From positions 2,108,001 to 2,172,000 of the forward strand of contig JAYWIR010000029.1 in the NCBI GenBank assembly GCA_036172245.1: a stretch of 64,000 bases of DNA, read 5' to 3'. Under the pieces are notes generated by a model, which was not told the origin of the DNA, did not search any database, and saw nothing but the letters and a program-made list of their open reading frames with translations. Position 1 is the stretch's first letter. Each line of letters opens with the position of its first letter. Of this stretch, positions 25,311 to 60,462 are shown in pieces. Source of the stretch: Raillietiella orientalis. Its lineage: Eukaryota. The translations under genes were made by a program, and so were the position numbers.

Positions 25311-25351
25311 CTAAAAAGCGTACCTTAAAGAACTATACGAAACTAGCAAAC

Positions 25352-37112: not shown

Positions 37113-38887
37113 TTGCTTTCCAAGAATTAAAAGGCATGACGGAGAATCCTTGGCTGAGGAAGCTGAGTTTGTGGAGCTCAACTATATAATTGCCAGAATC
37201 ACTTACCTTGACCTGCGGGGTTATACCTGAATGTCGGTTTGCCCGACGGTCTCTGGTCATCCGCGCGTTCCTCGACGAAGACTTCCTAGTCAGGGACACC
37301 TGCGTCCTGACGATGGTTCCGAGAATGGACGCATCGAAAATCACATCCGCGAACCACTGGAGCTTCGTGATTCCCGCCTCCTCCCTTACCTCCTTTTTCT
37401 AGGGTGCTGGAGGACGATCGTCGTTTCGTTTCATTTCGGGATGCGTCCGTCGACTGTTGACATGAGAGCATCCAGGCGGCCTTGTGGCTTGAGGGGTGCC
37501 CCCCCATATTCTTGGGGGCAGGAAAGGGAATGGAACTGGGTCGCAGATGAGGGTGGCGAATGCACTCACCTCGCTGCCCGACGGCGACGGAGGATCCACC
37601 CGGGTGTGTAGAAAGCGCATCTCTCCTCGTCCTGCATTTCAGCGCGATGCGCCATCGATCCCCTGCAGGTTGGCGCCCTCCCTCTCGTGGGAATCCCGGC
37701 AACGGGAAAGCGTGCTCCTGGCCCGCGCCGTTTCGTCCGGGAGTCCCCATTTCGCTTTCCCAAGTCGCTCGGAGCCACTGGATCGAGAGAGCGTCTCCGG
37801 GCTCGAAGGGCAAGTTTGGAAGTCAGCGTCGTTGCGATCAGGGTTCAGAATGCTCCGCATGTCAAGGGAAAATCTCCCAAGACTAGCAGATGGACCGGCC
37901 TCGAAACGAAACAAACAAAACACGCAAAAAAAAAAAAAAAAAAAACTGGCTTTTTACAAAAAGTTTTTCTGGCCGGTAGTTCGCTCGGAGGTGAACGGCC
38001 TTCTTGGAGAGTGAAACTCGCGGAATGGAAGCTGAGGGACCCGTTTGAAGTGATCTGCCAGCCAGTTGGTAGCCCTGAAGTTTTCCCGTGGCGGGACGCG
38101 AGTGTCGTCGGGTCCTTGCGTCAGTCGGGTGCAGAAGGCACCTGCGCGTCCGGAACTTGGGGCATGTGACGCGTTGCGTGACCGCAGCGTGAGCGTTCCT
38201 GCTGAGAAGCTCTCAAGGCACGGCGGGAACGCTCTCGAGATGCTGCCATTACGGGCATTCCATCAACCCGCGTCGCCTCCGAAACGGCTCCTTTCATCTC
38301 GGCATCTTCCGCAATTCTCGGATTCCAGACTGCGGAGGTTTCTGCTCTTAAGGCTGGGCCTGTTCCTTGACGGGGAGCGAGACTCGGCTCGGGGGGGTCA
38401 GTGTCCCTGAAGAGAGCGTGCGGTCCTCGAGCGACGCGCGCAGTGCGGGGAAGGCGGCAGAGGAGAGGCGACGAGCGCTGCGCTGGATGCAGGCGCTTCC
38501 GTGCGCGGTCCGAGGAGGGAAACTGGGAGAAGCCCGCAGACCGCGAGAACGATGCTCTCTGAGCCGAAAGCGCCTTCCGCTACCCCCTTGGAAGGTTGTC
38601 GACCTCGGGATCCGTCGGAGGGAGCTTTGGAGCACACGGAACGGCGCCTACAGGATTGGTCGAGGTTCGAGGATGCGCGAGAGTTCCTCTAAAGGTCGCG
38701 TCTCTCTGATTTCCTCTGGACCTCGGAAAAGGAGGCAGGGAAGGGCAGAGCCCACAAAGCGTCGGAGGGAAGCCAGGGGGTGTGGTCCTGACACCTCGGA
38801 CCGGTTCGCCAAGTACTAAAGAACCGTTCGCCTGGAAGCTCACGAAGCTCTTTGACACTTGACCACGCCATCAGAGCGTGAGTGTCA

Positions 38888-39400: not shown

Positions 39401-42254
39401 TTCCTGACAGATGGAGAGCGCTCTCCGGTCCGGAGGGCGCGACCGGCAGCGGGTGGAGAGGGGATTCAGGTTTCGGGATTTTCGCCTTCGTTCGTCTTCT
39501 GCGTTCCCGCAGCTCGCGTCCCTGGTTTCTCCCTTGCTCCGTGTTCCTGCTGGCACTTCCTGGTAGCCGGCGGCTTCCTCCTTCCACGCTCGCGTGGGTG
39601 GAATCCCCTCGACCCCCCACTTCTCCTTTCGGTCTCCGACATCCGAGGGAAGCTCTCAGACGGACTTGCCCCTTCTGACGGGATAATGCGCGCGCACCAC
39701 GGGAGCAGTACCCGTTCCCGCATCTTCTTCTTCTCCTTCTGAAGTGACTAGTCGGCTGGGAGGCAGTGGTTCCGGAATGCGCGCCTGCGACAGTCAAGTG
39801 AATGCCTCCGGGCGCGCGCGCCGCACCTTCGCTGCCGAGGGAACTTTCGCGAGGGTCGTCGCGCTGAGCGCCGCCGCCTCCTGCGCACTCTCTCGCGTGT
39901 TGGCTGCGCGTAGCGAGGGAAACGCCTCCCGCTCCTTACGCACCACGCACCCGGACTCTGAAGACGCTCCCGTGCGTGTGGGGTGGGTGGAGTGAAGGGG
40001 AGAAAAAGACCGGATGACAGGGTGGAATGGGGGGGGGGAAGGAGCATAAGAGCCGTGAATGGAAAATTTGGGGAAAGAAGACCCCAGGGAATTCTCCACA
40101 AAGACCAGGGAAAGCCAAGAGACGAAAGGGGGTAGAGCGGCGGAGAGGGGGGCCTTTAGTACAGACTTCGACGCTGACTTGCCGTTCCGGTGTGGACCTA
40201 CGGAGGGGCCGATCCCGCGTGCGCTACGCGGTTCCCCGTGCGATTTCCCACCCCCTCTCCTCTTATCGGGAAGGAGGTTCGGGAGGTCATGAAGAAGTCC
40301 ACCTGCTGCTGGGGTTCGGGTACGTCTTACACCGGCGGCTGCTCCCCCTCTTCCTCGTCTCGGTCCTGTCGATGCGTCTTCCTACACTCCACGGCCTGTT
40401 GGAGAGCACGTGCTTTCGGGAGGAGGGTTCCCCTTCGAGGCTCCCTTCCGAGGTCAGGATCTCCCTTCTGGGGTACGCACTTCCGCGGAGCAAGCGGATC
40501 CTGCATGACGGGAGTGGCGACCTGGCCTCCAGGGGATCCGTTGCGAGCAGACCCGCGACCTCGCTAAAAGGCGCACCAGGTCCCGAGGGAGAATCACGGA
40601 TGCTCCCCGTCCTTTCACTTCGAAGCCACATAGGAGGACGACCTCCAGTTCGGGAGTGAGGCAAGCAACCGCGGTTCTTCCTCTTCAAACCAGGAGGTCC
40701 GAGCAGCCGTGCCGCCCCCTATCATCCCCTCCCTCTCTCACGCGCGCACTTGCGCCGGGAGGAGCTCGTCTGCGGCCCGCGGAGCCACGTCGCGCGCGTA
40801 TCCGGGTCGGGGGGGAGCGCGAGGTGGCGAGGGAGGAGGAGGAGGAGGAGGGAGAGAAGCCGTCGAGACACGCGTGAGTCCCTCTCGAGGCCCGTCCGGA
40901 GTTCCTGCCCTCTCCCTCTAGCGCGCGCGTCCGCGCGATTCTTCCAGCAGCGGCCGGCCGATGAGAGTGGGCGCCAGTGCGTTCCCAGCTGGCAGGGAAA
41001 GTGGCGCCGTCGAAGGTGATGGCAATGATTCGGAAGGGGGGGGGGGGAAGAGAGAAAGAGAGAGAGGGAGTGAGAGGATGCGAGTCTCGAAGTGGGTCAC
41101 GTGACCCGGCGCCGAGCGAAGCGCGCGGCCCGGAGGGGCCGAGAGGAGGGAGGGAGGGAGAGAGGAAGGGAAGGAGTAGAGCTCGCGAGCCGAAGAGCGG
41201 CTCATTCTCGCTGGAGGCACCGTCCCTCGCCGAACCCCTTCGTCCCTCTCTCCCTCTCCCCTTCTGCGAGTCGACTTCCGGCTCCGCCCCTCCCGTCGTC
41301 GCACGCACCGCCCCCGCTCGAGATTTGTGGGTTAATCGGCACCCGCAGCCGCGGTGCGGGACATCGCCGACTGTGGTGAAGAGAAGGCGGTGAGCGCGGG
41401 CGGCCTCCGGAACGCCCGTCACCAGCGGTCGCCAGGGAGACGCGAAATTTCACTCTGGTCGCGCAGCGCCTGCCGTAGGCGCGCACGAATGCTGCAGAAA
41501 AGCTGCTACCCCGAGGCTCGGTCCTGCTTCTATCCCGGGCGCTTCCGATGGGGACGCGGCCCCAAGAGGATCTGAGAACGCTCCGGGAGGGAGGCGGCAA
41601 AGGGGTGGCAGTGGAGGAGGATCGCCTCAGAAGTGACTGTGCGGGGAAGGGAGCTCGAGGCTTCTTGTGGGTCTGCCGGGTCGACCGCCTCCACCCAAAA
41701 GAACAGTCCCTCTCAGATGGACGGACCCCCTGCTACATCCAGAAGATCTGCCTCGTCCTCTCTTTCAGCTTACGGCTTCTTCACTCAGGCTCATGAGAGA
41801 CCAAGGAGCAGGTGGGGGCAGATAGTTGTAGGTGCCCGGGAGAGGAGGATCCGAAGGGGATGAGGAAGAAGGAGATGTCTCGTATGGGTTCTTTCTTCCG
41901 GGAATGGCTTTCCGAGAGACTGCGAAAACGAGGGAGCACGGACCAAGTCCCTCCTCCTCCCGTCGCTTGCCACCGCCCTCGGACAGAAGGGGACGGCAAG
42001 GACTAAAGGAGCTCCGCGTGACATCCTGCGGAATGGCTCGGCCTCCGCTTCCGGGAAGCTCTGGAGCACTGCATACGGAGTCGGAGGAGGAGGGGAACGG
42101 AAGAGTCGGGAAAGGAGGGAAGAGGTGGTGGCGGTGGAGACTCGGCATACAAAACCAGTCGGTGGGAACAGAAGGACGAGCTCGAACCTGTGGCGCTTCC
42201 TTCCCGGTGATGATGTCAGCGAAGGCAAAGATTTCCGTCCTCGAGCTCGTGACG

Positions 42255-42520
42255 AAAAGAAAGGAGGAGGAAGAAGGGAGGAGAGAAAGAGGAGGAAGAA
42301 TAAGGAAGGAGAAAATGAACGGGAGGAGGAAGGGAGGAAGAAGAAGAAGGGAGGAGAAAGAGGAGGAAAAAGGGAAAAGAAAGAGAACCGAAGGAGGAAG
42401 AGAAAGGGAGTAGAAAGAGAAAGGGAAGAGGAAAAGAAGGAGGAGGAAGGGAGGAGAAGGAGGAAAGGGTGAACGGCGTAGGAGGTGCAAAGGAAGGAAG
42501 AGGAAGAGGGAGGGGGAGGA
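42255..42520. repeat. Purine-rich (G/A) low-complexity tract
   Basis: Almost exclusively A/G on the plus strand for about 260 bp. Confidence 0.9.
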
Positions 42521-45500
42521 AAGCATTTTTTCCCTTACCCCGTTCTTCTCAGGGAAGAACGACCTTTTTTTTGGTGACGTCAAGGAACGCGCTCGGCCGC
42601 GAGTCCTGGATGCCTTGATCCAGGTGGTGCAAGACTGCTGATCGGGAAAACCTCACTCTGAAGTAGCATGAGAAAGAAAACGAGAGAGCAAGTGGAAAAG
42701 GAGTGAGAGGTGGGCAAGTGCGTCCTCCTCTTTCTCTGTGGGAAGGGCAGGTTTGAGAGGACCGGTTGGCGGCCTCTTTCCTCCGTCGCTTCCTACACGT
42801 CTCTAGTCTCTCTCAGTGATTTCCAGAGCTCCCCTTCCTATTCTAGCACCGACTTTTCGGAACGGTTTCTCCTTGCTCCTTTCCCTCCTCCCCTCTTCTC
42901 TCCCTTTTCCTTAGAAAGAAAAAAAATCAGCATCAAGAAGAAGAACAAGAAGCAGAAAGGGTCATCCCCGAATGTCTTGGCTTTCAGGACGAGGGCGGAA
43001 CGGAATTCCAAGGAAGGGACGGAAGCACTGGAACGGCGACCACTCCCCCACTCTTTCGAGACACACACACGTATAGAAAGAAGAAGATGAAGGAGATGAG
43101 GGGGGAGAGGTAGGGGGTGAGAAGCGAAGAAGAAGGAAAACCGGAACGCGTTTTCTGCGGAGGAGGGCGGCAGCTACAGCCCCATGGAGACTCTGCCCTA
43201 CTAAAACACGCGGCTCACTTCCGAGGCGCGACCATCCGCCTTGAGCCGCTCCCGTCGAAGCTCTCCGAGAGTGCCTCTGCGAGCGGAGACAGCAAAGAAA
43301 GTTGCTCGAGGGATTCTTGTCTGTACCCCCCCCTTCCTCTCTGCCTGCCCTCCCTCCCTATACCTGTGGGCGGGTAGAGGAGACGCGCAGAAGGAGCCCT
43401 GACTCGTCCCGCAGGCGGCGCTGCGAAAGATAGGAGGAGGGGGAAAAGGAGAGAGCATCGCCTGCCTCTCCCCCTCTCCTGCTTTCGTCGGTCGCCATTC
43501 GCTTGTGGCCAGAAGGGTGGTCGCTTCTTGCCCTTTCTGCAAAGGAGGGGAGGGGGGGGGAAAGGACCTCACCTCCACGCACCCAGCGGGAGTCGCCGTT
43601 CTCGCCGCCTGCCAGATCTCCCTGCAGCTGAAAGGTCGGGGGTAGAGAGGGACAGAGGAGGGTTGGTGTCTGCTCCTCGTCCCTTCCCTGCTCTTCAAGG
43701 GGCCGAACGCCGCGTCCCGGCTAGCAACCCCGCAGGATGAGAAAGGTGCGTCTGCTCTCCGTTCCGTGGACCGGGGTGGCGGGGTTATGTCTTCAGGAGG
43801 AAGGGGTGCGTAGGGTCGCGCGGAGGAAGGGAAGCCCCTGCTCCGGAAGGGTGCAAGTCACGTGCCGCGCTCTCACCCTCGGACGGTCTGTCTCCTAGTG
43901 AAAGTTCGTCTCGGCGGCACCGGGTACGGGAGCGCCAAGTGGAACGCCCGCGCGCCCTTGGACTGCTTCCATGGCTACGACTCGAGAAAGGATCCTTGGA
44001 AAGAGCTGCGCGCTCGGAAGATCACGGGCAGGAGAGTTGACCCGCCGGGATCCCGGAGGGTACGGGAGAGAAGAAGCGCACTGGTCTCCTGGGAAGCTCC
44101 AGCAGAAGCCCCTGGGTGACGCGCGCGCGCACTCGAAAAATCTCGACGCGAGCCGCTCCGGTGGCGATTCCTTCCGGAGACCTTCGCAAAGCAGGCGGGA
44201 TTTTCCCCAGGCAGGAGGATCGGAGGGCTGGGAAGTGGAGCCGCTCCTCTCGGGGAAACCTCCGTCCAAGGGGAGGAGTGCCTCCTCTCTTTGCCGGCTA
44301 TTGATCAGGGCAGGGGGGAGGGGGCGCATGTGGAAACAGGAGCCCGGCCACACGGAAGAGGGCCGGCGGAGAGGGTGCGCTGCCTTCCCTGGAGAGCCGC
44401 GATGCCGCCAAGTGGCTATGCCGGTAAGTCCGTGCCGCAGGGCTCTTTCGCCGGATCGGTCGGTGCCATCGGGACCTTCCCCACGGGGACAAGCGCTCCC
44501 AGACCGCTCGGACCTGCTTCTCCCTTCCCCTGATGGTCTCCCGCCTTCCTGAAGCCCTGCGCTTTTCTTTCCCATTTCCGATTTGAGGTCACGTTTTGCC
44601 GGGTAAAAGGAAATGCATTGAGGTCAGTAGGTAGACCGATTTCCCTTTCAGCGGTCCGGCGGCGCTCTCTGTGCTCCGAGGCAAAGGCGGTGCTGTCGCC
44701 ACAGTCCGGATCTGCGAGCCAAACCCGTCGCAGCCGAAAATTCCTGCTGACGGCGCCTCTCTGCCCTCCGTCGCCACCTCTGGAAAGTCCGTGGATCCTG
44801 ACGGGACGGGAAGCCGGCGCTACGCGCACGCACGCACGGAGAAAGAGGCAGAGAGCGGGAGAGAGAGAGAGAAGGAAATGCCCCAGGGCTCTGGAAAGTG
44901 AAATGAGCGAGCAGTAGGTTTCCGAGCGGCCCGACCCCAGTACTCGTAGCTCCATCCCCTGTCGACGTTGGGCAGCAGCTGGGTTCGCCTCTCGCACAGG
45001 CTGAAGCGGTCACATGGTGCGGTCGCTGTAGTGTCTTCTCCTCCACCCTCCTCCTCCCTCCTCCTCATCTCTCTCGCCGGGAAATGGTCGGAGCTCTGCC
45101 TCCGACTTCACCTTAAGAACCGCCCTTCTTGCACAAAGAAGTTGTCCGGAATCGGCTCGGTAACGGTACGGTGCCGCAGCGCACGCATCTGCCAGGTAAG
45201 GGAGTCAAGTGTTTTGTGTTTGGCAGCGGCAAGTGTTCCGGGCCCGCGAGGAACCAGGGTGGGTGGGGTGGCGCTCCTCTTTTCCTTCCTTCCTTTCCTT
45301 TTTTTGTGTGTGTATGTGACTGGTCTTTTGCTTTATTTTTCGAATTTCATTTTCGTTTTCATTGTTTGGACTTGGCACTCCTGAGGCTCGCGAGGCGAAC
45401 GAGGACGCGGGGGCTGGAAGGGCGCTCGTCGCGGTAGGAATTCCTCGCTTTGTTCGCCCCGGTCCGCTCCCTTCCTCCTTCTCTTCCTTGGCGCGGCTGC

Positions 45501-45562
45501 GGAAATTCAGGCAAAGGCAATGAACTCCCACGACGAGGGTCGCAAATGCACGGGGCGAGCGC

Positions 45563-45568
<6 letters not shown>

Positions 45569-45600
<32 letters not shown>
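45569..45600. repeat. (GA)16 microsatellite
   Basis: Perfect GA dinucleotide run. Confidence 0.95.
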
Positions 45601-45605
<5 letters not shown>

Positions 45606-46267
45606 GTGCGGGAAGCGGGCGGGCGCCCATTGTTTCCGTGGATACGGCGGAGGGAAGTTCTTCGGGATCTCCGTCACTCGCGCCGCTGTCGTCCGGGAGC
45701 AGCGCGCGGCGGCCGCCGCCGCTTTTCGGTGCTGTCTTTTACTTTCGCTGATCGTGCCCGCCCCTCTCGACTCACGCTCGGGAACCCGCTCACCGCTTCC
45801 GATTGGAGGAGCGCCATCCTTTGTTCCGAGAAGCTGCCACGGATGAGAACGGGATGGCCGGAGTTCGAAGCCGCCGCCCGAGCGGGTCGGTCATCCTCGC
45901 TTGCGGCGGGGCGCTCGCGGACGCACTGGCCGCGAGCGGTGCGGAGGGGGAAGGGGGTGCTCGAACAGAGCGGCAAGCGGGCAGACGGGCCCAGGGAATC
46001 CCTCGCCACCCCGGCGGCGAGGGTGTTCCACACGCGTCTCAAAGGGCTCTCAGGCGTCCGGGAAGCACCGTGACGTGGCTCCCTGCTTCCCTTACGTGTC
46101 GGGCCCCGTTTCCTCTTTCGCCCCCAGAGAAACCTCCCTCCTGGAAAAATCTCCTGGGCGCATCAGGGTAGCTCCGCTTTTGCTGTCATTCGTGTCCTCC
46201 CGGAAGAAGAAGGAACTCCAGGTCATTCACTGGGCGGACAGGCACGTGGGCCGAGTGGCCGAGCCCT

Positions 46268-46658
46268 CCATTTCCTGCTGAACAAAAGAATAAAGTGGGG
46301 GACAGCTTATTTACTGTAGACAAGAAACTTTAGACAGTAAGCGGATGATTCGATGCGGTTTTGGTGCGTCAGGCTGTGTAGCTCTCTGCAGTTTCAAGTG
46401 CTGTAATAACCAAATTAGAGATCCTTGATTCTTCTGACACAATTAAGATATGCACTGAATATGCACATAATGGTAAGAAATATGATTACTCGCCTGTGTC
46501 ACATTCAGTGCAAGAGGAATTGGGGCCAATATATGAAGAACTGCCTGGATGGAAAGAAGATACTCAACTGAGGTAAACGATCAACTGAGAAATTACTTGC
46601 TAATTTGATGAAGTATATAAGAAGGATAGAAGAGTTAACAGATGCACCAATTCATCTG
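46268..46658 (+). pseudogene. purA: Bacterial adenylosuccinate synthetase C-terminal fragment (Wolbachia/Rickettsiales-like), pseudogenised nuclear insertion
   Basis: Translates as PFPAEQKNKVGDSLFTVDKKL*TVSG*FDAVLVRQAV*LSAVSSAVITKLEILDSSDTIKICTEY...YDY...PIYEELPGWKEDTQ, then after a frameshift ANLMKYIRRIEELTDAPIHL. These are the PurA PFPTE, GWFD, TKLDVLD and PIYEE.PGW motifs. No introns; AT-rich island in GC-rich DNA. Confidence 0.9.
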
Positions 46659-49600
46659 CAGGCACGTGGGCCGAGCATTCGAGCTCTCCCGGGCGCTCCG
46701 CACCCGTCGCTTTCTGGATGGGAAGCCAAGCGCGAGCCCCTGTCGCGGACCGGGAGCACGTGGCTCCGCGTAGGTGTTCCGCCCCTCTGCGGCGAGCCAA
46801 AGGGTTCGAGCACGCGAACGCGCGCGCGGGGCGCCCGGGCGCGTCCACTGCTTACCAAAGAAGGGGAAAGGGAAACGAGGATGTCCGCTCCCCTGAGGCG
46901 AGGGAGCGCGCGGCCCCACTCGCTCGTGAAAGACGTTGGAAAGGAGGCAGCAAAGCGCAACATCCGTCAACGCGGGCTGCTGCACTCCCCAGCGTTCTTT
47001 CTTTCTCCGTCAACGCTCTGTTTCTCCCCTCCCCCCTTGAAGCCCGGAGAAAGTGACCGGGGGCAACGGGGGGCCCACCTTGGACTGCTGCTCTTTGGTC
47101 ACCTCCTCCCCGTGCTCGGGGTGCGGTTCAAAGATCGGTCACACGGCACAGATCCCGGTTCCTACCAGGAAGTCTTCCGGGCGCGACCCGAAAGAGTCGG
47201 TGCCCGGAGAGGGTGCAGACGCTCGGGATATGCCTCGATCCGTCTCTGAGGCCTCCGGGGCCGATTCCCTGCTTCGGGAGAAACCGTCCCCACAAAGCGG
47301 AGAGGAGGGCGGGATCGACCGGCCACTCCCTCCCGCGTTCGGACGACACCGACGGGCACGAACGCGTCCAGGAGCACCGGTTTGAGCTTCTCTCAGAGTC
47401 TCCTTTAAAACAGGAGGAAGGGTGGGGTCTCCTAAAGGGTCCAGTCAAGCGGATGGGATGGCCGAAAGCAACGGTTCGTCGGTCCTGGAAGCGCCTCCCT
47501 CCCAAGGTCAGAGGCCCATCCAAGAAGGTTCGTCTCCTAGGAGGAAGATGCAGCGGACTGAAGCTGCTCTCTCGGCGCTCCCCCCTCTGCACTAAGGTGG
47601 TCAGTGATGGCGCGGAAAGTGGGCAGGTGGCGCCTGGCGCCGAGGGCGTGAGCTGCAGCCTGGAAGAAGAGAGGAGAGAGAGGCCCAAGTCTTCCCTTCC
47701 TTTCCTCTTTTGAGGGAGGGAAAAGAGAGAGGAGATCCACCACCCACCGGCAGATTCACAGTGGCCGAGCGCATCCTCTGCTTCCTCCTTTCGTCCCTGT
47801 CCGACCCATTTTTCCCGATTTTTGTCCCTATTTCCTGAGTGCGTGAGGCGGGCTCGCCGAATGTCCTTGAGGAGGCAGGTCGCGCGCGCAGGACGACCGG
47901 GCCGCCCGCACATGTGTCCACAGATCATCTCCTTGGTGTTTTCCCATCGTCTGAGAGGACAGAGGGCAGCACTAGGGTTTCTGTAGCTCTTCCGGGAACC
48001 TATCAGGTGGCACTCGGGCGGGCCAATTCAATTCATCAAAACGCAGCTCCTGTTTGCGCAGGAGTATAGGAGCGGAGTTACTCGGGTAACCGGAGGTTGT
48101 CCAGTGCGAAACGCTTGAGACCCAGCGTCCAGCGTATGTGCGCTTGGCGCCAGGTAGGGAGACGCGGCATCCCGTCGTGCAGCTTCATGGCCCCTGCCAG
48201 TTTGCATTTTATGAACCTTTCGGACGAAGTCGCTTTGCGAAGTGGTGTTCGCCCTCCCCCCTCCCCCCCTCATGCGGCTTTAGACTCCGGCCCGCTGGCT
48301 CCAGAAGGCGCTCTCGCTACACTCTGCGGACGGGAAGGACGACCGGTGGAGGGAGGACGGAGTCGCCGTTGCAAAGGACCCCTGGCAACTCAATGGGTAA
48401 TTGGGACTACTATGGGGTTCTCCGGAGCCATCACGTCTCGGTCGCTCCTCAGTCGTCCCTGTGGCTGGGGAGGCTCTGAGAGTCCACCGGGGAATGCAAG
48501 GATGCCATTTCGCGGTCTAGGAGAGAAAAAGCTGACCAGGGGGAGGGAGACCGCTTTTTGGAACCCATGGCAACGTATGGTCAGGCCGCATTCACTCGGA
48601 TTCCTCCCTTCCTGAACACCGCCAGCCGGGAGGGGTAGATTGGGGTAGCCGCGATGACGATCTCCAGCACTGCTAAGGCTTACCGGGAGAGGAAGGGAAT
48701 GTTCATGGGAACCTTGACGACGTGAGGCATCCAGTGCCGGCCGGAAGCCCAGCGCAACAATAGCAGCCACCACGGATTGATGCTTCGTCGGGAGAGGTCA
48801 AAGAGGGAGGAAAGGGCTACTGGATGAGAGAGACTAAGGAGGATTGTCTATCCCCCTACCTGCTCATGCCTTCGAGGAATCGTCCGCCGGCTTTCCCAAG
48901 GGAGAAGATGCATCCCACTCGGTCTTTCCTGCTTCCCCTCATCCCATGAGTCATTTCGAAAGGGCTGAAAGGGCTCTTCTATAATCTCCCCTCCTGCAGG
49001 GAGCGCAGAAGCCTACTACGGAGGCAAAACAGCTGACTGTGGACGGAAGGGAGGAAAGGTGATTAGGAGGTCAGGACTCCGAGAGGGGAGAACGCTGCGG
49101 GCCGTCGCGGCAGTCCCGTGTCTTCGGCGCTTCCTTCGGCTGCATTGACAGTGTCAGCGTAGGGGGGCACGTCTGGCGCTCTGGCCCAGGCAGCACCGGG
49201 AGGAGGAGGATGCCGCACGGAGGGGGAGGGGGAAGAACAGTGGGTGGTTGAGTGTCCACCGTCTCTTGTGCCGCCCGTTGCAGAAAAACGGAAAGAGGCG
49301 GTAGCTCAGGCCGGTCCACATTCCGGTTTCGGCAGGGACCACGTGAGAGGGGAGCTCCTGGAGGCGCAGGCTGCGCTTCCTTTCGCCTGCTGCTGACCTC
49401 TTCCCGCACCGAGGAGAGACGTGCAAGGAACTCCGTCCCGACAGACACGTGGGCTTTTCGCACGCGGGGTGTAATATCCTGGGGAGGAGGAGCGGGACAA
49501 CGGACAGGGATCTTCCTTCTCCTCCTCCTCCTTCCCACCCTGTTGTCCCGCCGGTGGTCTCATGGAGGGCTTCGCTCTCTTGCAGGTGACTTCCCCTCCC

Positions 49601-51393
49601 CCCTTCGCCAGAGGGGAGGATGAGGGTCCTCGCCTTTCTGGGGATCTTCTGGAGGATGCTATTGATGACGAGCTGCCGGAAACTGGAGAGCGGGAAGAGG
49701 AAAGGGAAGTCCCTGGAGTTCATCACGGGGTTGAGTCCGCCACCGGTGCCTCCCCGGCAGATCATCACCTTCCCGTACCCCGTTCTACCCCTGCCGGTGC
49801 CACTGCAAGGTGAGGTGATGAGCGCATCCGCCCCTTTGCTCCTTCCCCTGTCTTCTCCTTCCTTCTCCAAGGGGCTAAAGAGGAAGGAAGGGTTGGTCCT
49901 GGAAACGGAGGAAAACTACTGCCCATGATCTCACGGGAGCGAGTGGGGAGAGAGGAGGGAAGGAGATTTTCTCTCCCCTCGGAGGCTCTCCCGGAGGCGG
50001 TTGACTGACGATCGGGGCGGCCCCCTGCCTTGCCGGCACGCGCCGCCGCGGGCTGACGGGCGATGCGCAACGGCGCGTTGGCCACCGAAAGGAAAAGTCC
50101 ACTCGGATCGCCAGGGCCTATCCCTCGTTCGGACCGGCACAGCAGCCCAGCCTGTGTGGCCCGGAACGCTGTCGACGCGGAGGCTCGGAAGCGTTTCCCC
50201 TGGCAACGTCCCTCGTTTCCGCGACTCGAGTCGATTTGCCGGCGTGGTGCGAGCTTCCTGCCCTCTCGAGATGGGAACCCTACCTTCCTCTCCCACTCCC
50301 AAACCGTCTGGGAAGGAAGGGAGGATAAAGCTCGTTCCTCAGTCTTCCGGGAGAGTAGGGGATCCGGAAGGGGTGGTGGCGAAAGAGCAAGGGAGACGAG
50401 GGAAGGGCGCGACGGCCGATGCCCCCCTGCAATTCGAAGCATCATCGTCGTCATCTCTGGAGCGGGAAGGGGCGCTCCCGCATTCGTTCGCCCGCCAGTC
50501 TCCTACTGCCGTTTCCGGAGTTCCTCTCCTTCCTCGCCCCCCTCCTGTCCACCTCCTGTACAGTCAGGGAGGCACTTCGTGCTGGCTGGCGCCCGGGAGT
50601 CTCCCTGCAGAAGAGAACCAGCTTCCCCCTGGGAGAGGCGACTTTTGCCAGAGACACCGCAGTCGGTCCCCCACTTAGGGGCCCGAAAAAGGAAGGGAGA
50701 GAAGAACTGTTCCACCCCTACCCCTGAATCCTGTGTGGGAAGACCCATTAAAGGCACCGTAAGAGGCAGAGCACGCGCGCTCGCGAGGTGACCCGGATTT
50801 CGCGCCCGCAATCCGAGAGCCAACGGAAGAGGAGAGGGATGCAGGGCGCGCTTTCGGAAAGGGGAGACCCGTCAGCCCGAGACGAATGGGCTGTTCGAGG
50901 GAGGAGGTGGCCGGGCTCTCTTCCCTCACCCACGGAGAGCTTCCAGCGAGCGGGGAAAGGGTCGTCCGTGGACTTTCACTTACCTTCTCGGCGGGGTTTC
51001 GTGTCTCCCGGAGGCGACCAGCACGTCAGACATCGAGGATCAGCCGGAGGTCCTCTGCCCCTTCATCCCCGGAGCATCTTTTTCCAGCCTTTAGGTGTGC
51101 CTGCGCGGACGAAGGAGCAGAAGCGCTGTCGAAGACCAAGCCTCGTCAGACGGCCCTCCATCTCCACCCTCGGCGTCCTTACGAGACGAGGGACCCCCTA
51201 CTTTCCGGAGAAGGGCGGAGTCCCCATCCCAGAACGGTTCTCCCCTATCTACTCCACCTTCTTTGTACCCCTCTGTTCAACACCTTTTGGCGAGGGGTGG
51301 AGGTGGGGGGGCTCTGCAAACCCACGAAGGATGATCCGCCTTGTTCCCGCGGCCCCGCCTTCCCGGAACGCCTCCTCAAGGAATCTCTTGCAG

Positions 51394-51678
51394 TGTACCT
51401 GCCTCAGACAGCAGAGGCCACGCGCTGGGAGGAGCGGCAGTCCTTAAACTTCCTCGTCGGTGACCAGTCCAAATGCTCCTCGGGCACTTGCCAGTTCTTC
51501 CTCATCTGCTGGGTCCTGGGCGGCTCGCTACAAGGCACGTGCGGAGGATTCCTGTTCTCCTGCTGCCAGAGGAGGGGCAGTGTGAGAGGGAGCAGGGGTT
51601 CCAAGCACCTGAATGGCCCGGAGGACAGCAGCGGGAACAAGCCGCCGGAGGACTACGGTCCGGTCATCAACGATCCAG
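51394..51678 (+). CDS. Trypsin-like serine protease (Stubble/CG8170-like), exon with N-terminal Cys knot (clip-like); upstream exon(s) not located
   Basis: CSSGTCQFFLICWVLGGSLQGTCGGFLFSCC...DYGPVINDP. Acceptor ttgcag, donor gt at 51679, phase 1/1. Confidence 0.82.
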
Positions 51679-51898
51679 GTCAGGCCCTTTATCCTCCCTC
51701 TCCGCCTCCGCCGTCAGAGTCCGCTGTTCTCCGCGCCTGGAGTCAAGGGGGGGAGATGATGAGAAGGAGGAAAAGGCTGAAGGGGTGCTTCTAAGGGAAG
51801 CTCTTGCCTCGCCTCTCCCCCCTTCCCATCCACTGGGCCCCAGAGAACGAGGACGCGAGCATAGCCAGAGCGTGGTAGTGAACGTCCGTGTGTTTCAG

Positions 51899-51981
51899 CG
51901 TGCGGCGTGTCAGCGTCCATCAGGCTTACCAGGCGCATCGTTGGCGGGCAGGACGCCGGGTTCGGAGAGATGCCTTGGCAG
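51899..51981 (+). CDS. Serine protease exon: activation site
   Basis: CGVSASIRLTRR/IVGGQDAGFGEMPWQ. tttcag acceptor, gtaaat donor. Confidence 0.92.
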
Positions 51982-54900
51982 GTAAATGCACTTCTCTTTC
52001 GAGTGTCCGCCGCCAACCTTCTCCCCCCCCTCCCTCCTCGTGAAAGAGTCGCGCCATCCCTATCCCCTCCTTCCTCCCTCCGCGTGCCTCCGAGGGTCGC
52101 AAGGTATCTTGCGAATTCCGGGAGAAGGGGAAAAGTACAAAGAGAGTCTCCGGGACCTCAGAGACCCGAAAAGATGATGTCTGGTACGCGGATGCCAGGG
52201 AATAGGGGACAGTGGAGGAGAGGACGACAGGACGGGATGCCGGCCTTTCCTTCCGAGACAGTTCCTCGATCCCACTGTTTCACTCAAAGACAGTAGACGG
52301 GATCGCGTTCCTGGAAAGCGTGGATGAATCTTGTCTGTGAAGCCGGGATCTTCTGGGAGTTTCCGCTCCGTCGGGAAAGAGAGGAGTTCTGGAGCTGCTT
52401 CGCCAGCTTGGAAGGCTCCCCCTGGTACCCTCCAGAAGGTTCTCAGGGAACTCACCCATTCACCCTTTCACCAAGCAGCCTCGCTTTTCTATGTTCGCTC
52501 TCTCTGGCCGGTCGGACGGTACTCTTCCGGGATCCGCTGGAAGGATTCGCAATGCGACTCTCACCCTCCCCCTCCGTCTCGCCTTCGACACGGTCCCTTC
52601 CGAGTCACGCTCGTTCCTTCCGCCCGGATGTCCCCGGAAGCGCACGCGCCAGCTGCTGCGGGAAGGAGACGTCCGAAAAGGGGTCGACGGCTGTTTTCCC
52701 CGGAAAGCATCAACGAAAGTCTGGCGATGGGTCAGAGCGAGCAGCAGGAGGTTTCTTCGCCAGGCTGGACAGTGTTAAACTCCGTTGTCCTTCCTTTCCT
52801 CGAGGAAGGGGAAACTTTGGGGGTGGATCTTCAACGCAAGATGTCTGCCGCTAGGAAAGCTGCTGCCCCCGGCCGCTGATCCCCTGAAGAGCGCCTCAGA
52901 GAATTCTTCTGGGAGTGCGTTCCCGGTGCTCAAAGTGGAAGGGAGTCAAGAGAGAGGGCGCGGACGCCTCTGGCTCTGGTAGCTCAACTCACCGGATGAA
53001 AAAGCTCTGCCTCCTTGCCTCCTGACATGGCGAGCCCGCTCGGGCTCAGGATGCTGCGCGAGTCCCCTCTCATCTATGCGTGAACCTCTTCGCGCTCCCG
53101 TGACCCACTCCTGTTTCCCGGCTGACGCAGAGGCAAAGCAAAAAAGCAGTGCTGAGAGCGCACGAACGGAAGGAATCTTTGAGCCTGAGTGCCTCGGTGG
53201 GGGGGTCCAGATCCAGGCGTTTTCGAGTCGAGTTCCGGAAACGCTGATGTGACAGGGAAGCGGTTTTTCCTGGTGGCAAACGCCGGCCAGCTCAGACAGC
53301 GGAGAGGATTGAAGGGACATGGAGTGCCTTCTCCTCCCTGTGAGGTCGCCGTCTTTTGCTAGCAGCGTCAAAACCAGAGCAGCGGCGGCCCGTACAACGA
53401 GCGGCAGATTTCTCCCTGCTCGCGGGTAGAGGAGAAGGAGGAGGAGAGGAGAAAAAAGGAAAAAAAAAAAAAAAAAAAAAAGAATGTCCCTTTTGTTCGG
53501 TCTTTGTCTCCGAAAACGCGAGAAGTGAAAGATCGATCCGGTGGAATCGGCAGTCCTGGATACTGCGCGGCGGCTGGTCGTTTCGCGTTCCAGTTGCTTC
53601 CAGGCTGGAATGCGCAGGGCGAGGCCTCGAAACGAGGCTTCGCACCTTTGCACCCGAAAAGCTCGAGCGCTTCCCAAGGAGAACTTCAGCAGGTCGTTTC
53701 GCTCCTAGAGGAGGCACGACACAAAGAAAAGCACAACACAAAAAAAAAAGAGAGGCCAGTCGGACTCTGATCACCCTCCAATCTGAATTCCGAAGGAGAA
53801 TTCACCCAACGTTGTGGCTCCGATAGTTCGACACACATCGTGCCTTTTCGTGTGCACATGGAAATACGTTGGGAAAAGCGAAACGCTGTTTCGTGCTGCT
53901 CCGAAATTTTAAAACTTCCCATCCTGCTTCATGCCTTTCGGAGGAAGACGGATCCTCCCCTCTGATTGGTCGCAGGGTGACGAACGGAGGCGGAGGCGGG
54001 ATGAGGCAAAAGAGATCGCTTCCTTCCTACCTCAGGCATCGTTTCCTGTCCAAATGTGGGATAGAGTTTCCCGTTTCCGCAAGCGAGGCGCGGATTGGAT
54101 AATGTTCGGGACTTTCGCTTCCATGGCGACGTGCCAGCAGGTCTCCTCGATGACGCGTAGCAGCTCCGAGCACTCCTTGGCGTCCCTGCTTTTCCCTCCT
54201 CCCTTCCCTCCCCTTCCTTAAGAACTCTCGGAGTGTCGAAGGGGAAGAGCAGCCCTCAGAGCGACGACGTGGTATAAGGTGAACACTTGGAAGGGACCAC
54301 TGTAAGAGACCCGGTGCGTCGAGGTGTGCTGCAGGCAGGGAAACTGTGCTCCATGAGCGCCATCCAGGGAGGGGGTCGCAGGGAGAAAGTGCATGCTGCA
54401 CCGAAGCGCCAGCGCCGCTGCAGCAGTTGCCATGGTCACCGGGGACGCGCGTCTCGCACGCTCCCAAGGGTTCCACTTTCCTCTTGGGGGCCGCTTCCTA
54501 GCCGGAGGTGTTCTGCGGAGCCTCCAGCAGAAGGAATGAGGACATCAGCAGGCTCCTGTCAATCCTGGATTCTTCCTTTGAGAGGGAAGAGAAAGCGGCG
54601 CGGGTTTGCGTGCATAAAAGCTTCATCTGAGGGAGCAGTTCCAGTGTCTCTGGAGGGCAGAAGGTTGCGAGGTGCCGAGCTGACAGACAGGGAGGGATAT
54701 AGGCACGTGCCCTCTCATGGTTCCGAGTCTTGCTCACCCTCAACGCCTTTTTCCTGCTCCCTTTGCCAAGGAAACGGCAGCAGCTGGCACCTCTTGAAAT
54801 GTTCGCTCTTCCTTCTGTCACGAAGTGGACTCCGGGATTGCGCGCTTGCATGATAGTGGGAACCGAGGCTCACGTGAGGAAAAGGACGTAGACATCCTTA

Positions 54901-55324
54901 TCTCAAGGATGGCTTGTTGGTTTTCTAAAAAGCATTCAAGGAAGGGAAGCTGGAAGAGCTGGGTTGTATTTATTCATCTCGACGGGAAAAAAAAATGTGT
55001 CGAGGAACGGCCTTTTCTGAACAGGCTGGGAGGGAACTTTTACCCTGAGGGCTCTTGAGCACTTTGGACCGCTCTCGGGGCGCCAGCTGCGATGCCAACC
55101 GACTGGGTCTCAGATGGAAGGGAGGTGAGAACAAAAAACGCGAATAAAAAAAAACCCTGGTCTTCCTTTCTCTCCCTCTACTTCTCCACTGCTACCCAAG
55201 CTAATGCTAGATAGGGCGAGAAAGAGGGAACGTTTATTCCTCTGCTCGTTTCGATGAGCGGGGGTCTGGATGAGGGCGAAGCAGGAGCCGCCAGTCCTCG
55301 GTCTCACCAGCACTTTTCCTTCAG

Positions 55325-55410
55325 GCATACATCCGTGTGAAGAACAGCCGCTGTGGAGGGTCTCTGGTCAGCAGGTGGCACGTTGTCACGGCCGGTCATT
55401 GCGTCATCAA
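55325..55410 (+). CDS. Serine protease exon: catalytic His
   Basis: AYIRVKNSRCGGSLVSRWHVVTAGHCVI. cttcag acceptor, gtaaga donor. Confidence 0.92.
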
Positions 55411-55558
55411 GTAAGAGGCAAAAAGTCCCTAGTCTCTGTTCTTTTCCTCCTTGCCGTCTCCATCACAACTGCACCTTCGAACCGGAAGCAGTATTCCGTT
55501 TCTCTTCTGGTTTCTTTCCCGACGCAGGAGTCGCTGATTTCTCTGCTGGTGCTTCCAG

Positions 55559-55833
55559 GGCTTCGGCCAGCCAGGTCCGGGTCATCCTTGGGGACTACGT
55601 CCTGTCTTCTAGCATCGAACCCCTGCCCAATGAGAAATTCAGCGTCCGCTCTATACACGTCCACCCCAAGTTCAAGTACACCCCTCAGGCGGATCGTTAC
55701 GACATAGCCGTGCTGACCCTGGACCGGGAGGTGAAGCTCAAACCGAACATTAAGCCCATCTGCCTCCCGGAGAAGAATGAAGACTTCGAAGGAGATCTGG
55801 CTTGGGTGGCTGGATGGGGAGCCCTTCAGTACG
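55559..55833 (+). CDS. Serine protease exon: catalytic Asp
   Basis: VRVILGDY...HPKFKYTPQADRYDIAVL...IKPICLP...VAGWGAL. Phase 2/1 GT-AG boundaries. Confidence 0.93.
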
Positions 55834-55958
55834 GTTAGTACATCTTTTTCAGACCCTCTTTCCCCTTTACGCTCCCTTCAGCCGAGTTCGCGCGCTTCCT
55901 CCTCTTTCCTCCTGAGGGAAGGAAAAAAAAACGTAGTCTCCAATGCTGCTCGTTTCAG

Positions 55959-56275
55959 GCGACAAGCAGCGCCCCAAGACGCTGCAGATCGCGGAGGTCC
56001 CCGTCATTTCGAACAAGCAGTGCGAGTCGTGGCACCGCACGAAACTCATCCGGGTGAGGGTACACGAAGACATGATCTGCGCCGGCTACAAAGATGGAGG
56101 CCACGACGCTTGCCAGGGGGACAGCGGCGGCCCGCTCATTGTCGAGAAGGAAGAGAGGTGGCACCTCATCGGGATCGTGTCCGCTGGCTACTCCTGCGCA
56201 CAGTCTAGGCAACCCGGCATCTATCACCGGGTCGCCAGCTCTTCTGACTGGGTCTCTTCGGTGATCCGCAGCTGA
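55959..56275 (+). CDS. Serine protease last exon: catalytic Ser and stop codon
   Basis: RPKTLQ...MICAGYKDGGHDACQGDSGGPL...GIVSAGYSCAQSRQPGIYHRV. Asp in the S1 pocket indicates trypsin-like specificity. Confidence 0.95.
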
Positions 56276-57599
56276 TCGTATCCCGGGAGCCTTTCTTCCC
56301 CCTTCCACCCCATCCCCCCACGTGAGGTTCGGACGGGTTCCCGGGTCCCTTCCTTTCTCCCGGGAAGAGAGAACGAGGAAGAGGCTGGTGGATCCGGGTG
56401 TTCACAAGAGCAGCTCTCTTTGCGAGAGGCTGCCGACATCCTGAGGCCTGCTAGCCGCAACCCCGACCCGCGGGATGATTCGAGCGATGGGGATGATCCG
56501 AGTGTTCGCCAGGACTTCCTGCCTGCAAAGCGCATTCCCGAAAGAATTCCAGAAAAAGGGGAGAAAAAAAAAAGAAAAGAAAGAAAGGAAAAAGAAAAAA
56601 GAAACAAACGTTCAGCAACTTTCCGGTGACCTCATGACTGACCCTTCCTCCTCCCCTGCTTCCCTTCTCATGCCATTTCGAAATCGCCCCACAGAGCAGC
56701 GAGAAGACGGCCATCCAGAGTCCTGAGAGGGAATCCTTCCGGTCCTGCTGCGAGAGCGCGGAATTTCCCGTCTCGGGTCAATAAAACACTTCTCACTTGG
56801 ATCTTTGAATGAAGGTTCGGGAGGAGGGGGTCGAGGGAGACGCAGCCCTTTTTGCACGGGAATGGGTATAGAAGAACCGGCCCCTTCTCTCTGGGAGCAT
56901 CCCGGTTCTCGTCCCGCGGGAGGCGCAAACGGACGGAGGGCCGGTTCGCGAGTTTCAGTAAGAGGTAGATCACGGAGTAGTCGAGGACGAATGAGGATGG
57001 CTCACTTCGCCCGCGGGCGGCGATGCTCTGCCGGCTCCGCACTGATGCAGCTCACCTGCTAGTGGGATGTGGAACAGCGTCGTTCCCTCTGGGAAACACG
57101 AGTAGATCCTCTCCTCCTACGAAGATGGCCACCCGTCGAGTTGCAAGGGGAAAAATCCCTGAAGAAGCGTCATCTCTCTGACCTGAAAGATCGAGCACAT
57201 CCAAAGTTCTCCATGATCTGGCGGAAAGGGCCTCCCTGGAGTAGGAAGGCTGCGGATGATAAAGGAAAGAGGGGAGTGGGAAGGGAGGAAAACTGAGACG
57301 TTCTTGCTTCCGGGGAGTTTCTTTGCTATCTTAGACCTTACTATCTCCTCCCCCCCTCCATTCTTCTCGTGAGATTCCAACTCGTGAGCGGAGAAGCAGG
57401 ACAAGCTCTCTTCAGGGATTCCAGGACTGCCAGGGACCGGAAAGAGGAGGGAAACGAATTTGCTGCCAATTTGCTAGAGTTCACTTTCTTCAAGGCATCG
57501 CCCCGGATGGAGATGAAGAGGGGCGGAGGGAGAAGAAGCGCAGGCGGGAGGAGGCATAGTTCATGCGATGCTCTCTCAGAGACAGACAGCTACTGAGTG

Positions 57600-57755
57600 C
57601 TACGATGAGACTTGGATTCTGACTCCACGCGTAGCATCGAGTGTCGCGGGTTCAAATCCCAAGTGGGAAGGATGGATGCAGAGAACGGAGGGGGTGCGTC
57701 GTTAGTCCTAGTCCCCCCTGCAGGTTGGCCTCGGGTAGCTTCGGATGCGGCAGTA
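57600..57755 (+). mobile_element. 5' head of the tRNA-derived SINE-like family, truncated by LINE fragments
   Basis: B-box gggttcaaatccc (about 57648-57660) followed by aggatggatgcagagaacggaggggtgcgtcg, which aligns with the reverse complement of about 4293-4330. Confidence 0.45.
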
Positions 57756-57761
57756 TTGGTT

Positions 57762-58318
57762 GACACCCGGTCACGCCGGGGCGCTTGATTATAAAAAATA
57801 AACACACACGTCTGTGGCAGGACGTTTAATGCTGCCACGTCACTTATAACTACGAGAAGGAACCTTCTGGGAACTAGCACGCAGACCAAGGGTTCGCCTC
57901 GGTAGCCCAGGGAAAGATGAGACAAACAAAAAATAGAAAAAAAATATACAGTCAAAAAAATAGGGGGGCTCGGGAAGGGATCACCGTGTGCTAGAGAGTG
58001 TCCTCTGCATCCATGTAAGGATGCGGCAAGTTCCTGTTTCAAGACTGCCAGATGGGACCATCTCGACGCTATCCTCGTGAAGAGGACAGCAAAATAGATG
58101 GCGTCCCAGTAGTTCTGGCCTTCTCTGGCGTTGCTCCATGCAGCCAGGGCCCCGCCGCGTGAGCAGCAAAGTGCTACTAGGGATAAGTCTGCCAGAGTGA
58201 GGGCGTCGTGCTGGAAGAGGCGCTTCAAAACGCCTCTGGAGTTGCTTCGGGGGGTTGCAAGGATCGCGGCAAAGAGTCCCCAAAGGGACCGGAGGGCAAG
58301 CCAGTCCACTAGGAGGTG
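57762..58318 (-). mobile_element. LINE 3' fragment
   Basis: DWLALRSLWGLFAAIL...VALCCSRG...AAWSNA...AIYFAVLF...WSHL matches the ORF2 C-terminus. Terminal hairpin at 57766-57780. Confidence 0.85.
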
Positions 58319-58331
58319 CTGGCCTTCGTAC

Positions 58332-58770: not shown

Positions 58771-59040
58771 TCTATAACTTGAAGGTCGAGTTGTGCCGCA
58801 GCCGGACTCGGACGTGTTTTGTTAGCGCTCCCGACTCCCGGCTTTACTTGGTGTTTCCATGTTGTTCCGGTATGGAGGAATGCCAGAAGTGCCTGAATCC
58901 ACCACACTAAAAAGTGTCAGGGGGACATCGGACGATCGTCCCCCGTACCCACGAAAGGTGGGACATCCGACCCCGAAGCTTCATCCCCCGCGCTGGCGAG
59001 GGAATGCAGCGCCGTGGTCGCCGCGCCCTCTGCAGCGGCC

Positions 59041-60429: not shown

Positions 60430-60462
60430 CGCCGGGACTCGCCACTTGCCGTCGACTCCACG

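Follow-up and report, generated by a model that had tools for sequence, protein, structure and literature searches.

The window, i.e. the whole 64-kb stretch of DNA that was analysed, carries a pseudogenised piece of purA, the gene of adenylosuccinate synthetase, which sequence comparison assigns to the Wolbachia lineage and which is bracketed by two exact copies of a 17-bp host sequence. Wolbachia DNA in host nuclei (nuwts) is common in arthropod and nematode genomes, and the fragment itself is for that reason ordinary; it is an ordinary fossil of bacterial DNA, with an unusually clean insertion scar. The route by which Wolbachia DNA enters nuclei is poorly documented at the base-pair level, and since both junctions, the host duplication and the filler have been kept, the site is a small record from which the step of integration can still be read. 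We consider it likely that the fragment is a nuwt that was captured as DNA at a staggered break, was end-joined into place and has since decayed neutrally.

Identity and extent of the purA fragment

The fragment, as delimited by its match to PF00709, by DNA identity and by the limits of the alignment, is located as follows:

46267..46657, + strand: pseudogenised C-terminal fragment of Wolbachia-lineage purA (adenylosuccinate synthetase)

These 391 bp represent the C-terminal third of adenylosuccinate synthetase, i.e. ~130 codons or ~30% of the gene. With the stops read as X, the translation matches PF00709 with an E value of 2.9e-19 (69.6 bits versus a cut-off of 27) over positions 301-374 of the 416 in the profile, and the piece that follows the frameshift matches positions 378-411 with an E value of 0.0014, under Pfam's cut-off. 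Overall, the fragment thus corresponds to profile positions ~301-411 of 416, and it ends ~65 nt before the gene's own stop codon. Furthermore, all the solved structures matched at an E value of at most 0.01 are adenylosuccinate synthetases (20/20), and the profile and structure matches together bear out the initial annotation of the island as C-terminal PurA. The bacterial homology runs from 46267 to 46657, and not from 46268 to 46658 as first given. The fragment contains no complete open frame of ~430 aa, and is a gene fragment without function, not an enzyme.

Donor lineage

DNA matches to the fragment were found in 66 of the 98 genomes of Wolbachia's family, the best reaching 77% (G076), 76% (G097) and 75%. 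The best two of eight genome loci, both from named Wolbachia, show 66% amino acid identity, and the next best shows 49%. In the nucleotide tree, the fragment falls within a 59-row clade that includes both named Wolbachia, with support of 97/96 against six outgroup rows. In the protein tree, for which the bootstrap is not fully settled (correlation 0.987), it falls within a 66-row clade with support of 96/96, together with all seven further proteins that were included, six of them from named Wolbachia, and with two named loci. Both trees group the fragment with all the named Wolbachia rows and separate it from the family's other genera, so that it is nested within Wolbachia, not among other bacteria or eukaryotic ADSS, which is the position of a nuwt. 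Within the Wolbachia clade, no starred subclade of either tree holds the fragment, which is short. By sequence comparison, then, the donor is a bacterium of the Wolbachia lineage, in agreement with the Wolbachia-like origin proposed at the outset: the nearest relatives are Wolbachia, and neither eukaryotic ADSS nor other bacteria. The peptide FDAVLVRQAV, to which the proposal had pointed, is found unchanged in L011, the homologue within the Wolbachia clade that matches best.

Defects and decay of the fragment

The reading frame of the fragment is broken at several places:

46331..46333, + strand: in-frame stop TAG, at a Gly codon in homologues
~46340..46341, + strand: site of an 18-bp in-frame deletion, SNRRRRC codons lost (alignment, L011 translation)
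46346..46348, + strand: in-frame stop TGA, at a Trp codon (TGG) in homologues
46379..46381, + strand: in-frame stop TAG, at a Gln codon in homologues
~46567..46570, + strand: 4-bp insertion, frame +1 (alignment)

The deletion has removed the Arg-rich segment before GW (SNRRRRCGW in Wolbachia homologues), and the three stops, the Arg-rich deletion and the frameshift are all as they had been described initially. At conserved columns, defined as those common to at least 90% of 58 bacterial rows, the fragment is changed at 11/95, 13/108 and 8/41 sites of codon positions 1, 2 and 3, respectively; no other row has so high a rate of change, and none shows so flat a distribution across codon positions. 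The bacterial rows have a median of 0.9% changes at positions 1 and 2, the most divergent reaching 8.0-9.7%. Taken together, the counts at conserved columns and the three stops suggest that neutral decay of the fragment probably amounts to ~0.1 changes per site; in the stop-based estimate 6.2-6.4% of substitutions are stop-making, and the limits from stops alone are wide (0.026-0.56). The fragment is a dead pseudogene, as would be expected of a nuclear fossil but not of a contaminant that is alive, much as its decay had earlier been taken to argue against simple contamination.

The GC content of the fragment (0.386) lies within the bacterial range of 0.312-0.400. Its private changes comprise AT>GC at 20 of 163 sites and GC>AT at 10 of 81, with no difference in direction from those of the 58 pooled bacterial rows (304 versus 97, Fisher P = 0.28), and no shift of its GC content towards that of the flanks was detectable.

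The AT-rich island and its surroundings

In 200-bp windows, the GC content is 0.375-0.395 within the island versus 0.695-0.715 in the flanks, and the GC-rich half of the window (29-64 kb) has no other island of at least 400 bp with a GC content below 0.42; the two 17-mers bracket the island. In a DNA-level search, the fragment matched all five genomes used (5/5) and three other searched stretches of the window matched none (0/5); no other Wolbachia-like DNA was found in the 64 kb by this search against five genomes, which more decayed pieces could escape. The window also contains an MTPAP-like exon, which matches best to a moth (51%), followed by a shrimp (49%) and ants (45-47%), identities to vertebrates being 43-46%; in a tree this exon falls outside the vertebrates, and Nematoda is the commonest phylum of the Atlas clusters.

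In the assembly, the fragment is contiguous with GC-rich DNA on both sides. A linkage known from the assembly, and the extreme GC contrast with the flanks, would also be expected of an AT-rich piece foreign to the chromosome that the assembler had joined in, as a chimera or a contaminant. We regard this as highly improbable, as the gene is dead and hence does not come from a live bacterium, and as the piece is bracketed by an exact, GC-rich host duplication that is absent from the bacterial gene and that a mis-join would not create. Moreover, the window contains no N, and the flanks are single-copy within it.

Structure of the insertion site

The sequence on the two sides of the fragment is organised as follows, no strand being assigned:

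46239..46255: 17-bp host direct repeat, upstream copy (target-site-like duplication), exact match to CAGGCACGTGGGCCGAG
46256..46266: filler, 11 nt, between the upstream 17-mer and the bacterial DNA, without homology to the sequence upstream in Wolbachia purA
46658..46658: one unassigned base, separating the bacterial homology from the downstream 17-mer (alignment)
46659..46675: 17-bp host direct repeat, downstream copy, exact match to CAGGCACGTGGGCCGAG
46676..46689: the duplication may extend here in diverged form, 9/14 positions identical to 46256-46269

The 17-mer CAGGCACGTGGGCCGAG is present in exactly two copies in the 64-kb window, with none further even when two mismatches are allowed, and none of 100 shuffles (0/100) gave at least two matches; its occurrence on both sides of the island, as first noticed, is therefore exact and confined to these two places. 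Paralogues of the flanks, which could serve as an empty site, were not found within the 64-kb window, and as the flanks are unique there, the repeat does not belong to an element present in several copies. No terminal inverted repeats were seen by eye at the ends of the insert. If the repeat is a duplication, the empty site would read ...GGACAGGCACGTGGGCCGAG and then pass directly into the downstream flank. A 30-mer of the downstream repeat and flank (for the empty site) and a 38-mer from inside the insert (for a second copy) both gave 0 matches among metagenome contigs, in which a eukaryotic host is unlikely to occur.

The junctions bear signs of end joining in the form of filler, which measures 11 nt on the left side and a single nt on the right. 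The core of the 11-nt filler, GGCCGAG, is identical to the 7 nt that end the 17-mer. No other full copy that could have been the template of the 11 nt was found nearby, and the sole other match with at most one mismatch, 1.5 kb off, is at chance level (at least two matches in 52/100 shuffles). Alternatively, 46256-46266 is not filler but belongs to a 31-bp duplication that has diverged in this part. The segments 46239-46269 and 46659-46689 are identical at 26 of 31 positions (84%), and the 9/14 identities beyond the 17-mer would arise by chance with a probability of 0.0046, given the local base composition; going by this alignment, the direct repeat may be longer than 17 bp, in the form of an imperfect 31-bp duplication. 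Under such a reading, a TCC microhomology at the junction is possible.

Relative age of the scar and the pseudogene

If the two 17-mers were formed together, the probability that both are still intact is ~0.01-0.06 at a decay of ~0.1 per site, and reaches 0.17-0.36 only at a decay of 0.03-0.05. Since perfect 17-mers are improbable at a decay of ~0.1, the scar may postdate the pseudogene. It could be much younger if purA had decayed elsewhere, in an older and larger Wolbachia insert, from which the dead copy was later captured here. Such a relocation, which we consider unlikely, would account both for a 17/17 perfect pair despite the decay of the fragment (the probability of an intact pair being 0.013-0.059 at a decay of 0.08-0.12) and for a fragment without compositional drift towards its GC-rich surroundings. 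On the other hand, no second copy was found within the 64 kb; the limits of the decay estimate are wide, as given above; and the divergence could in part be that of an unsampled donor lineage, given that the most divergent bacterial rows differ at 8.0-9.7% of conserved positions. The conflict between perfect repeats and a decayed insert vanishes, furthermore, if the true duplication is alternatively the 31-bp imperfect one, which shows five differences against 5-7 expected.

Comparison with the LINEs of the window

The window contains a decayed LINE with an APE-type endonuclease at 60430-61236 and a weak reverse-transcriptase match at 62387-62851, as well as a 5'-truncated LINE copy at ~9351-10064 on the minus strand, which is flanked by an exact 16-bp duplication. 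Only this one LINE duplication was verified, and only one copy with clear ends was found in the window, which is too few for a target consensus. It nevertheless makes the size comparison drawn in the initial annotation a fair one, the 17-mer being of LINE-like length and one base longer. LINEs do make duplications as long as this, and no DNA-transposon superfamily is known to do so.

A LINE-endonuclease break is thus one possible, though unproven, source of the staggered cut, and in view of the 17-bp and 16-bp duplications it is conceivable, though unlikely, that the LINE machinery of the host itself opened the break through which the bacterial DNA came in. As a full account of the insert, in which a LINE endonuclease cut the site and foreign DNA was joined in or, in a bolder form, a Wolbachia transcript served in trans as template for the LINE reverse transcriptase, we find this improbable, even with an APE-type endonuclease in the window and duplications that agree to within one base. 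Four aligned LINE 3' ends share a common hairpin tail, ..CCCGGCG..CCGGGTGA.., and neither this conserved tail nor poly(A) is present at either end of the purA insert. The fragment is internal to purA, starting and stopping in mid-gene, and on these grounds the retrotransposition suggested earlier is unsupported. In addition, a duplication with filler is also produced by ordinary break repair, as tabulated in PMC2671141. If the LINE reading were true, a retroelement endonuclease would be a gateway for endosymbiont-to-host transfer, with the junction preserved cleanly here; and if many junctions in the genome had LINE-sized duplications, endosymbiont transfer would be tied to retroelement-made breaks.

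Discussion

For capture as DNA at a staggered break, the reading that we prefer, the course of events would be the following. A ~390-bp piece of a Wolbachia-lineage purA, from its middle-to-3' region, would have entered an invertebrate germ-line nucleus as DNA and been joined into a chromosome break in which the cuts in the two strands were offset by ~17 nt, or by as much as 31 nt. Fill-in of the overhangs would have duplicated the host 17-mer on each side, and the filler, 11 nt to the left of the piece and a single nt to its right, would have been added during end joining; the piece, being functionless, would then have decayed neutrally. We infer a DNA rather than an RNA intermediate, a staggered break and end joining from the features of the site described above.

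Comparable scars are on record. Of the 51 human break-repair insertions that lack a poly(A/T) tail in Table 1 of PMC2671141, 13 have target duplications of 4-21 nt; five are classed as 'Filler+TSD', with filler of 1-68 nt. Insertions of organelle DNA in Toxoplasma, on the other hand, are without target duplication in the part of PMC10636329 that bears on them, which suggests that duplications are not the rule for captured DNA. As for nuwts, their junctions are enriched in intergenic DNA according to the relevant part of PMC3849323, and the terms 'microhomology', 'direct repeat' and 'end joining' do not occur in that paper. Term counts over the literature gave 0 occurrences of 'target site duplication' for the 12 papers with 'nuwt' among the matches listed (15 of 18). 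PMC11226609 deals with matters other than the integration of Wolbachia DNA.

Compared with Wolbachia PurA (PF00709), the fragment shows 66-69% amino acid and at most 77% nucleotide identity over profile positions 301-411, including an identical FDAVLVRQAV, but it spans only ~30% of the gene, and has three stops, a frameshift and no SNRRRRC segment. It resembles known nuwts in being a fragment of a Wolbachia gene, pseudogenised and functionless, in what the assembly gives as non-coding nuclear DNA of the host; it differs from them in being one isolated piece of 391 bp instead of a large or multi-gene insert, and in its clean duplication-plus-filler junction. It is also a marker of past or present Wolbachia infection, in an invertebrate host whose intergenic DNA is unusually GC-rich. 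With the products of LINE target-primed reverse transcription and with processed pseudogenes it shares the length of the duplication (17 versus 16 bp), but not their poly(A), LINE 3' tail or transcript-end boundaries. Finally, the break capture of extrachromosomal DNA seen in numts, nupts and repair-mediated duplications, in which foreign or ectopic DNA is ligated into a break with filler, microhomology and sometimes a target duplication, is similar to the course proposed for this site; there the DNA comes from an organelle or from the chromosome itself, and here from a bacterial endosymbiont.

The purA fragment and its defects

The Wolbachia-type purA fragment occupies 46267-46657 of the forward strand, the limits of bacterial homology in an alignment with seven bacterial homologues, and ends ~65 nt before the bacterial gene would finish. 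With its stops read as X, the segment 46280-46561 matched the Pfam profile PF00709 (adenylosuccinate synthetase) at positions 301-374 of 416 with an E value of 2.9e-19, and the next frame after the shift matched positions 378-411 with an E value of 0.0014, below the curated cut-off; every one of the 20 solved structures matched at E <=0.01 was likewise adenylosuccinate synthetase. The initial annotation, which had described a PurA C-terminus with stops, a deletion and a frameshift, was right on each of these points, and only its limits were moved by one base. The status of the fragment as a dead gene is well supported by the following defects.

Defects of the purA fragment, forward strand
46331-46333, +, in-frame stop TAG (homologue alignment)
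~46340/46341, +, 18-bp in-frame deletion, SNRRRRC codons lost
46346-46348, +, in-frame stop TGA, replacing a Trp codon
46379-46381, +, in-frame stop TAG (homologue alignment)
~46567-46570, +, 4-bp insertion, frame shifted

Decay was counted as private changes at columns where at least 90% of 58 aligned bacterial purA homologues agree. The fragment carries 11 such changes at 95 first, 13 at 108 second and 8 at 41 third codon positions; at first and second positions together it is changed at 11.8%, more than any other row, against 0.9% for the median bacterial row. As values of 8.0-9.7% at these positions, with a much steeper third-position excess, also occur in the three bacterial rows that diverge most, some of the fragment's branch may come from an unsampled donor lineage. 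The three stops give a decay of 0.13 (limits 0.026-0.37 if 6% of substitutions make a stop, widening to 0.026-0.56 across the range of 4-6% tried), the share of substitutions that create a stop being 6.2-6.4%. Our best reading is a decay of ~0.1 per site since loss of function.

The segment between the two 17-mer copies that bracket the fragment has a GC content of 0.375-0.395 versus 0.695-0.715 in the flanks, and is the sole island with GC below 0.42 over at least 400 bp across the GC-rich stretch from 29 to 64 kb. There is no N anywhere in the window. The GC content of the fragment (0.386) lies inside the bacterial range (0.312-0.400), and its private changes (AT>GC at 20 of 163 sites, GC>AT at 10 of 81) do not differ in direction from those of the pooled bacterial rows (304 and 97, respectively; Fisher P 0.28), so that neither test detected amelioration towards the host GC.

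Donor lineage

A Wolbachia origin of the fragment is well supported. The genome-collection scan returned eight loci, the top two of which were named Wolbachia with 66% amino acid identity, while the third matched at 49% and came from an unrelated phylum. At the DNA level, 66 of the 98 compared genomes of Wolbachia's bacterial family matched at E <=0.001, with the highest identities in G076 (77%), G097 (76%) and G040 (75%), most other full-length matches at 69-74%, and a weak, mostly partial tail down to 65%. In a maximum-likelihood nucleotide tree (65 rows, 417 columns), which places the fragment to clade level, it grouped with both named Wolbachia in a clade of 59 rows (support 97/96), apart from the six family rows that served as outgroup, on an end branch of 0.22. 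A protein search found seven proteins at E <=1e-5 among 68 candidates (66-69% identity), six of them from named Wolbachia, including a flea strain, a springtail strain and a 'group E' strain. When these seven were added to a protein tree, the fragment lay in a 66-row clade that held all the named Wolbachia rows (96/96, the bootstrap being not fully settled). The best hits were thus neither eukaryotic ADSS nor non-Rickettsiales PurA, in agreement with the Wolbachia-type PurA proposed initially. Furthermore, all five genomes compared with 40001-60000 matched there, always at 46267-46657, and none of the five matched the remaining three stretches of the window at the DNA level; at this level, nothing in the window other than the purA piece resembles Wolbachia DNA.

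Genomic surroundings

The window is eukaryotic, as judged from a 28S rRNA fragment, LINEs and an exon resembling the mitochondrial poly(A) polymerase gene (MTPAP/PAPD1).

Features surrounding the insert
9351-10064 (approximate), -, truncated LINE copy, 3' end 9419-9913
23632-24453, -, MTPAP/PAPD1-like long open exon (PF03828)
30647-31097, +, LINE 3' end
36432-37154, -, 28S rRNA fragment (Rfam RF02543, 242 bits)
58324-58770, +, LINE 3' end
59000-63900, +, decayed LINE region, 3' end 63366-63858
60430-61236, +, APE-type endonuclease ORF (E 3.1e-8)
62387-62851, +, weak reverse-transcriptase match (E 0.0065, below cut-off)

The best hits of the MTPAP-like exon were moth (51%), shrimp (49%) and ants (45-47%), then fish and birds (43-46%); a quick tree put it outside the vertebrate clade (support 100), and Nematoda were commonest among the closest Atlas clusters. 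The host animal is an invertebrate, likely an arthropod. Since it is at most 51% identical to any protein found, the host seems distant from the annotated genomes in the collection. The 28S fragment, which packs model positions 665-1888 into only 723 bases, is possibly a piece of rDNA that has strayed or been rearranged, or else the target of an rDNA-specific element; a 226-bp inverted repeat of 99.6% identity (35521-35746 and 35889-36114) lies a few hundred bases from it.

GC content contrasts sharply along the window, being 0.34-0.39 around the MTPAP-like gene (18000-28000) versus 0.54-0.64 in the non-coding 30000-64000 (2-kb windows), and up to 0.715 in 200-bp windows close to the insert. 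Other repeats include two copies each of units of ~79 bp (7243-7402, 97-100%), ~86 bp (33660-33825, 92-100%) and 75 bp (5671-5820, 81%), and a 137-bp pair spaced 526 bp apart (22292-22954, 94%). Upstream of the insert are a purine-rich (GGA/GAA-type) low-complexity tract of ~400 bp (42074-42484) and a (GA)18 microsatellite (45569-45605).

The LINE family in the window is real. Among 46 long stop-free frames from 31-64 kb submitted to Pfam, none had a match except that of the LINE endonuclease. A GC hairpin tail (..CCCGGCG..CCGGGTGA..) and a T-rich stretch are common to the four aligned 3' ends, none of which has poly(A). The 16-bp sequence ACATTCGTACTTCGAT flanks the truncated copy as an exact duplication, at 9335-9350 on one side and 10065-10080 on the other.

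Junctions of the insert

Junction features
46239-46255 and 46659-46675, 17-mer CAGGCACGTGGGCCGAG, exact match
46256-46266, TGGCCGAGCCC, 11 nt between 17-mer and gene, no Wolbachia match
46658, single nt between bacterial homology and 17-mer

The observation of a purA insert with flanking 17-mers was confirmed: both exact copies were found as initially annotated, with no further copy in the 64 kb even at two mismatches, and two matches never arose in 100 shuffles. The flanks are single-copy within the window. The GGCCGAG core of the 11-nt stretch is identical to the final 7 nt of the 17-mer, and no other template was found nearby. The repeat may be longer: both the repeat finder and BLAST gave a length of 31 nt (46239-46269 versus 46659-46689, 84% identity), 9 of the 14 positions past the 17-mer matching (chance probability 0.0046).

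Two readings of these junctions remain, and neither is comfortable. The scar may be a 17-bp duplication with 11 nt of partly templated filler, which requires both 17-mers to have stayed unchanged (P 0.013-0.059 at a decay of 0.08-0.12). Alternatively, it may be a 31-bp duplication since diverged at five positions, in which case target and donor would share TCC (46267-46269) as a 3-nt microhomology; this agrees with the decay estimate, 5-7 differences being expected at 0.08-0.12 per site, but requires all five to lie beyond the first 17 bases (P ~0.012; 2002/169911, hand arithmetic). If the dead purA piece had moved from an older insert, the scar would be younger than the pseudogene, and the shorter duplication would no longer have the problem of two intact 17-mers despite decay.

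Mode of integration and comparison with known inserts

The fragment is likely integrated in the nuclear genome, as judged from its sequence context. The duplication of host sequence across the insert implies that the two strands were cut at different positions and the resulting overhangs filled in. In the mechanism we favour, the two strands of the chromosome would have been cut at staggered positions, a piece of Wolbachia DNA captured at the break, and the insert sealed by end joining, with overhang fill-in duplicating host sequence. The initial annotation had also suggested retrotransposition, and the likeness in size between the duplication and those of the resident LINEs holds for the one copy checked (16 bp versus 17 bp). 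However, the insert bears no sign of an RNA intermediate: there is no poly(A) at either end, both limits are internal to the purA gene, and the hairpin 3' tail of the four LINE ends is lacking. DNA capture is preferred because of this and because duplications accompanied by filler are known where no LINE is involved. That a LINE endonuclease cut the break seems unlikely, and true retrotransposition of the purA piece less likely still.

Wolbachia DNA in host nuclei is already well known, and PMC4046930 and PMC12693587 describe fossil inserts whose hosts lack living Wolbachia. Word searches of open-access text did not find 'target site duplication' in the literature on nuclear Wolbachia transfers among the matches listed, nor, in the searched text of PMC3849323, 'microhomology', 'direct repeat' or 'end joining'. 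What sets the purA insert apart is its clean duplication-plus-filler scar, its one such feature. Organelle inserts in Toxoplasma are reported to have no target duplication (PMC10636329), unlike the insert here. On the other hand, Table 1 of PMC2671141 lists 51 human break-repair insertions that lack a poly(A/T) tail; 13 of them have duplications of 4-21 nt, and five of those 13 are classed as 'Filler+TSD', pairing a duplication with filler in the absence of LINEs.
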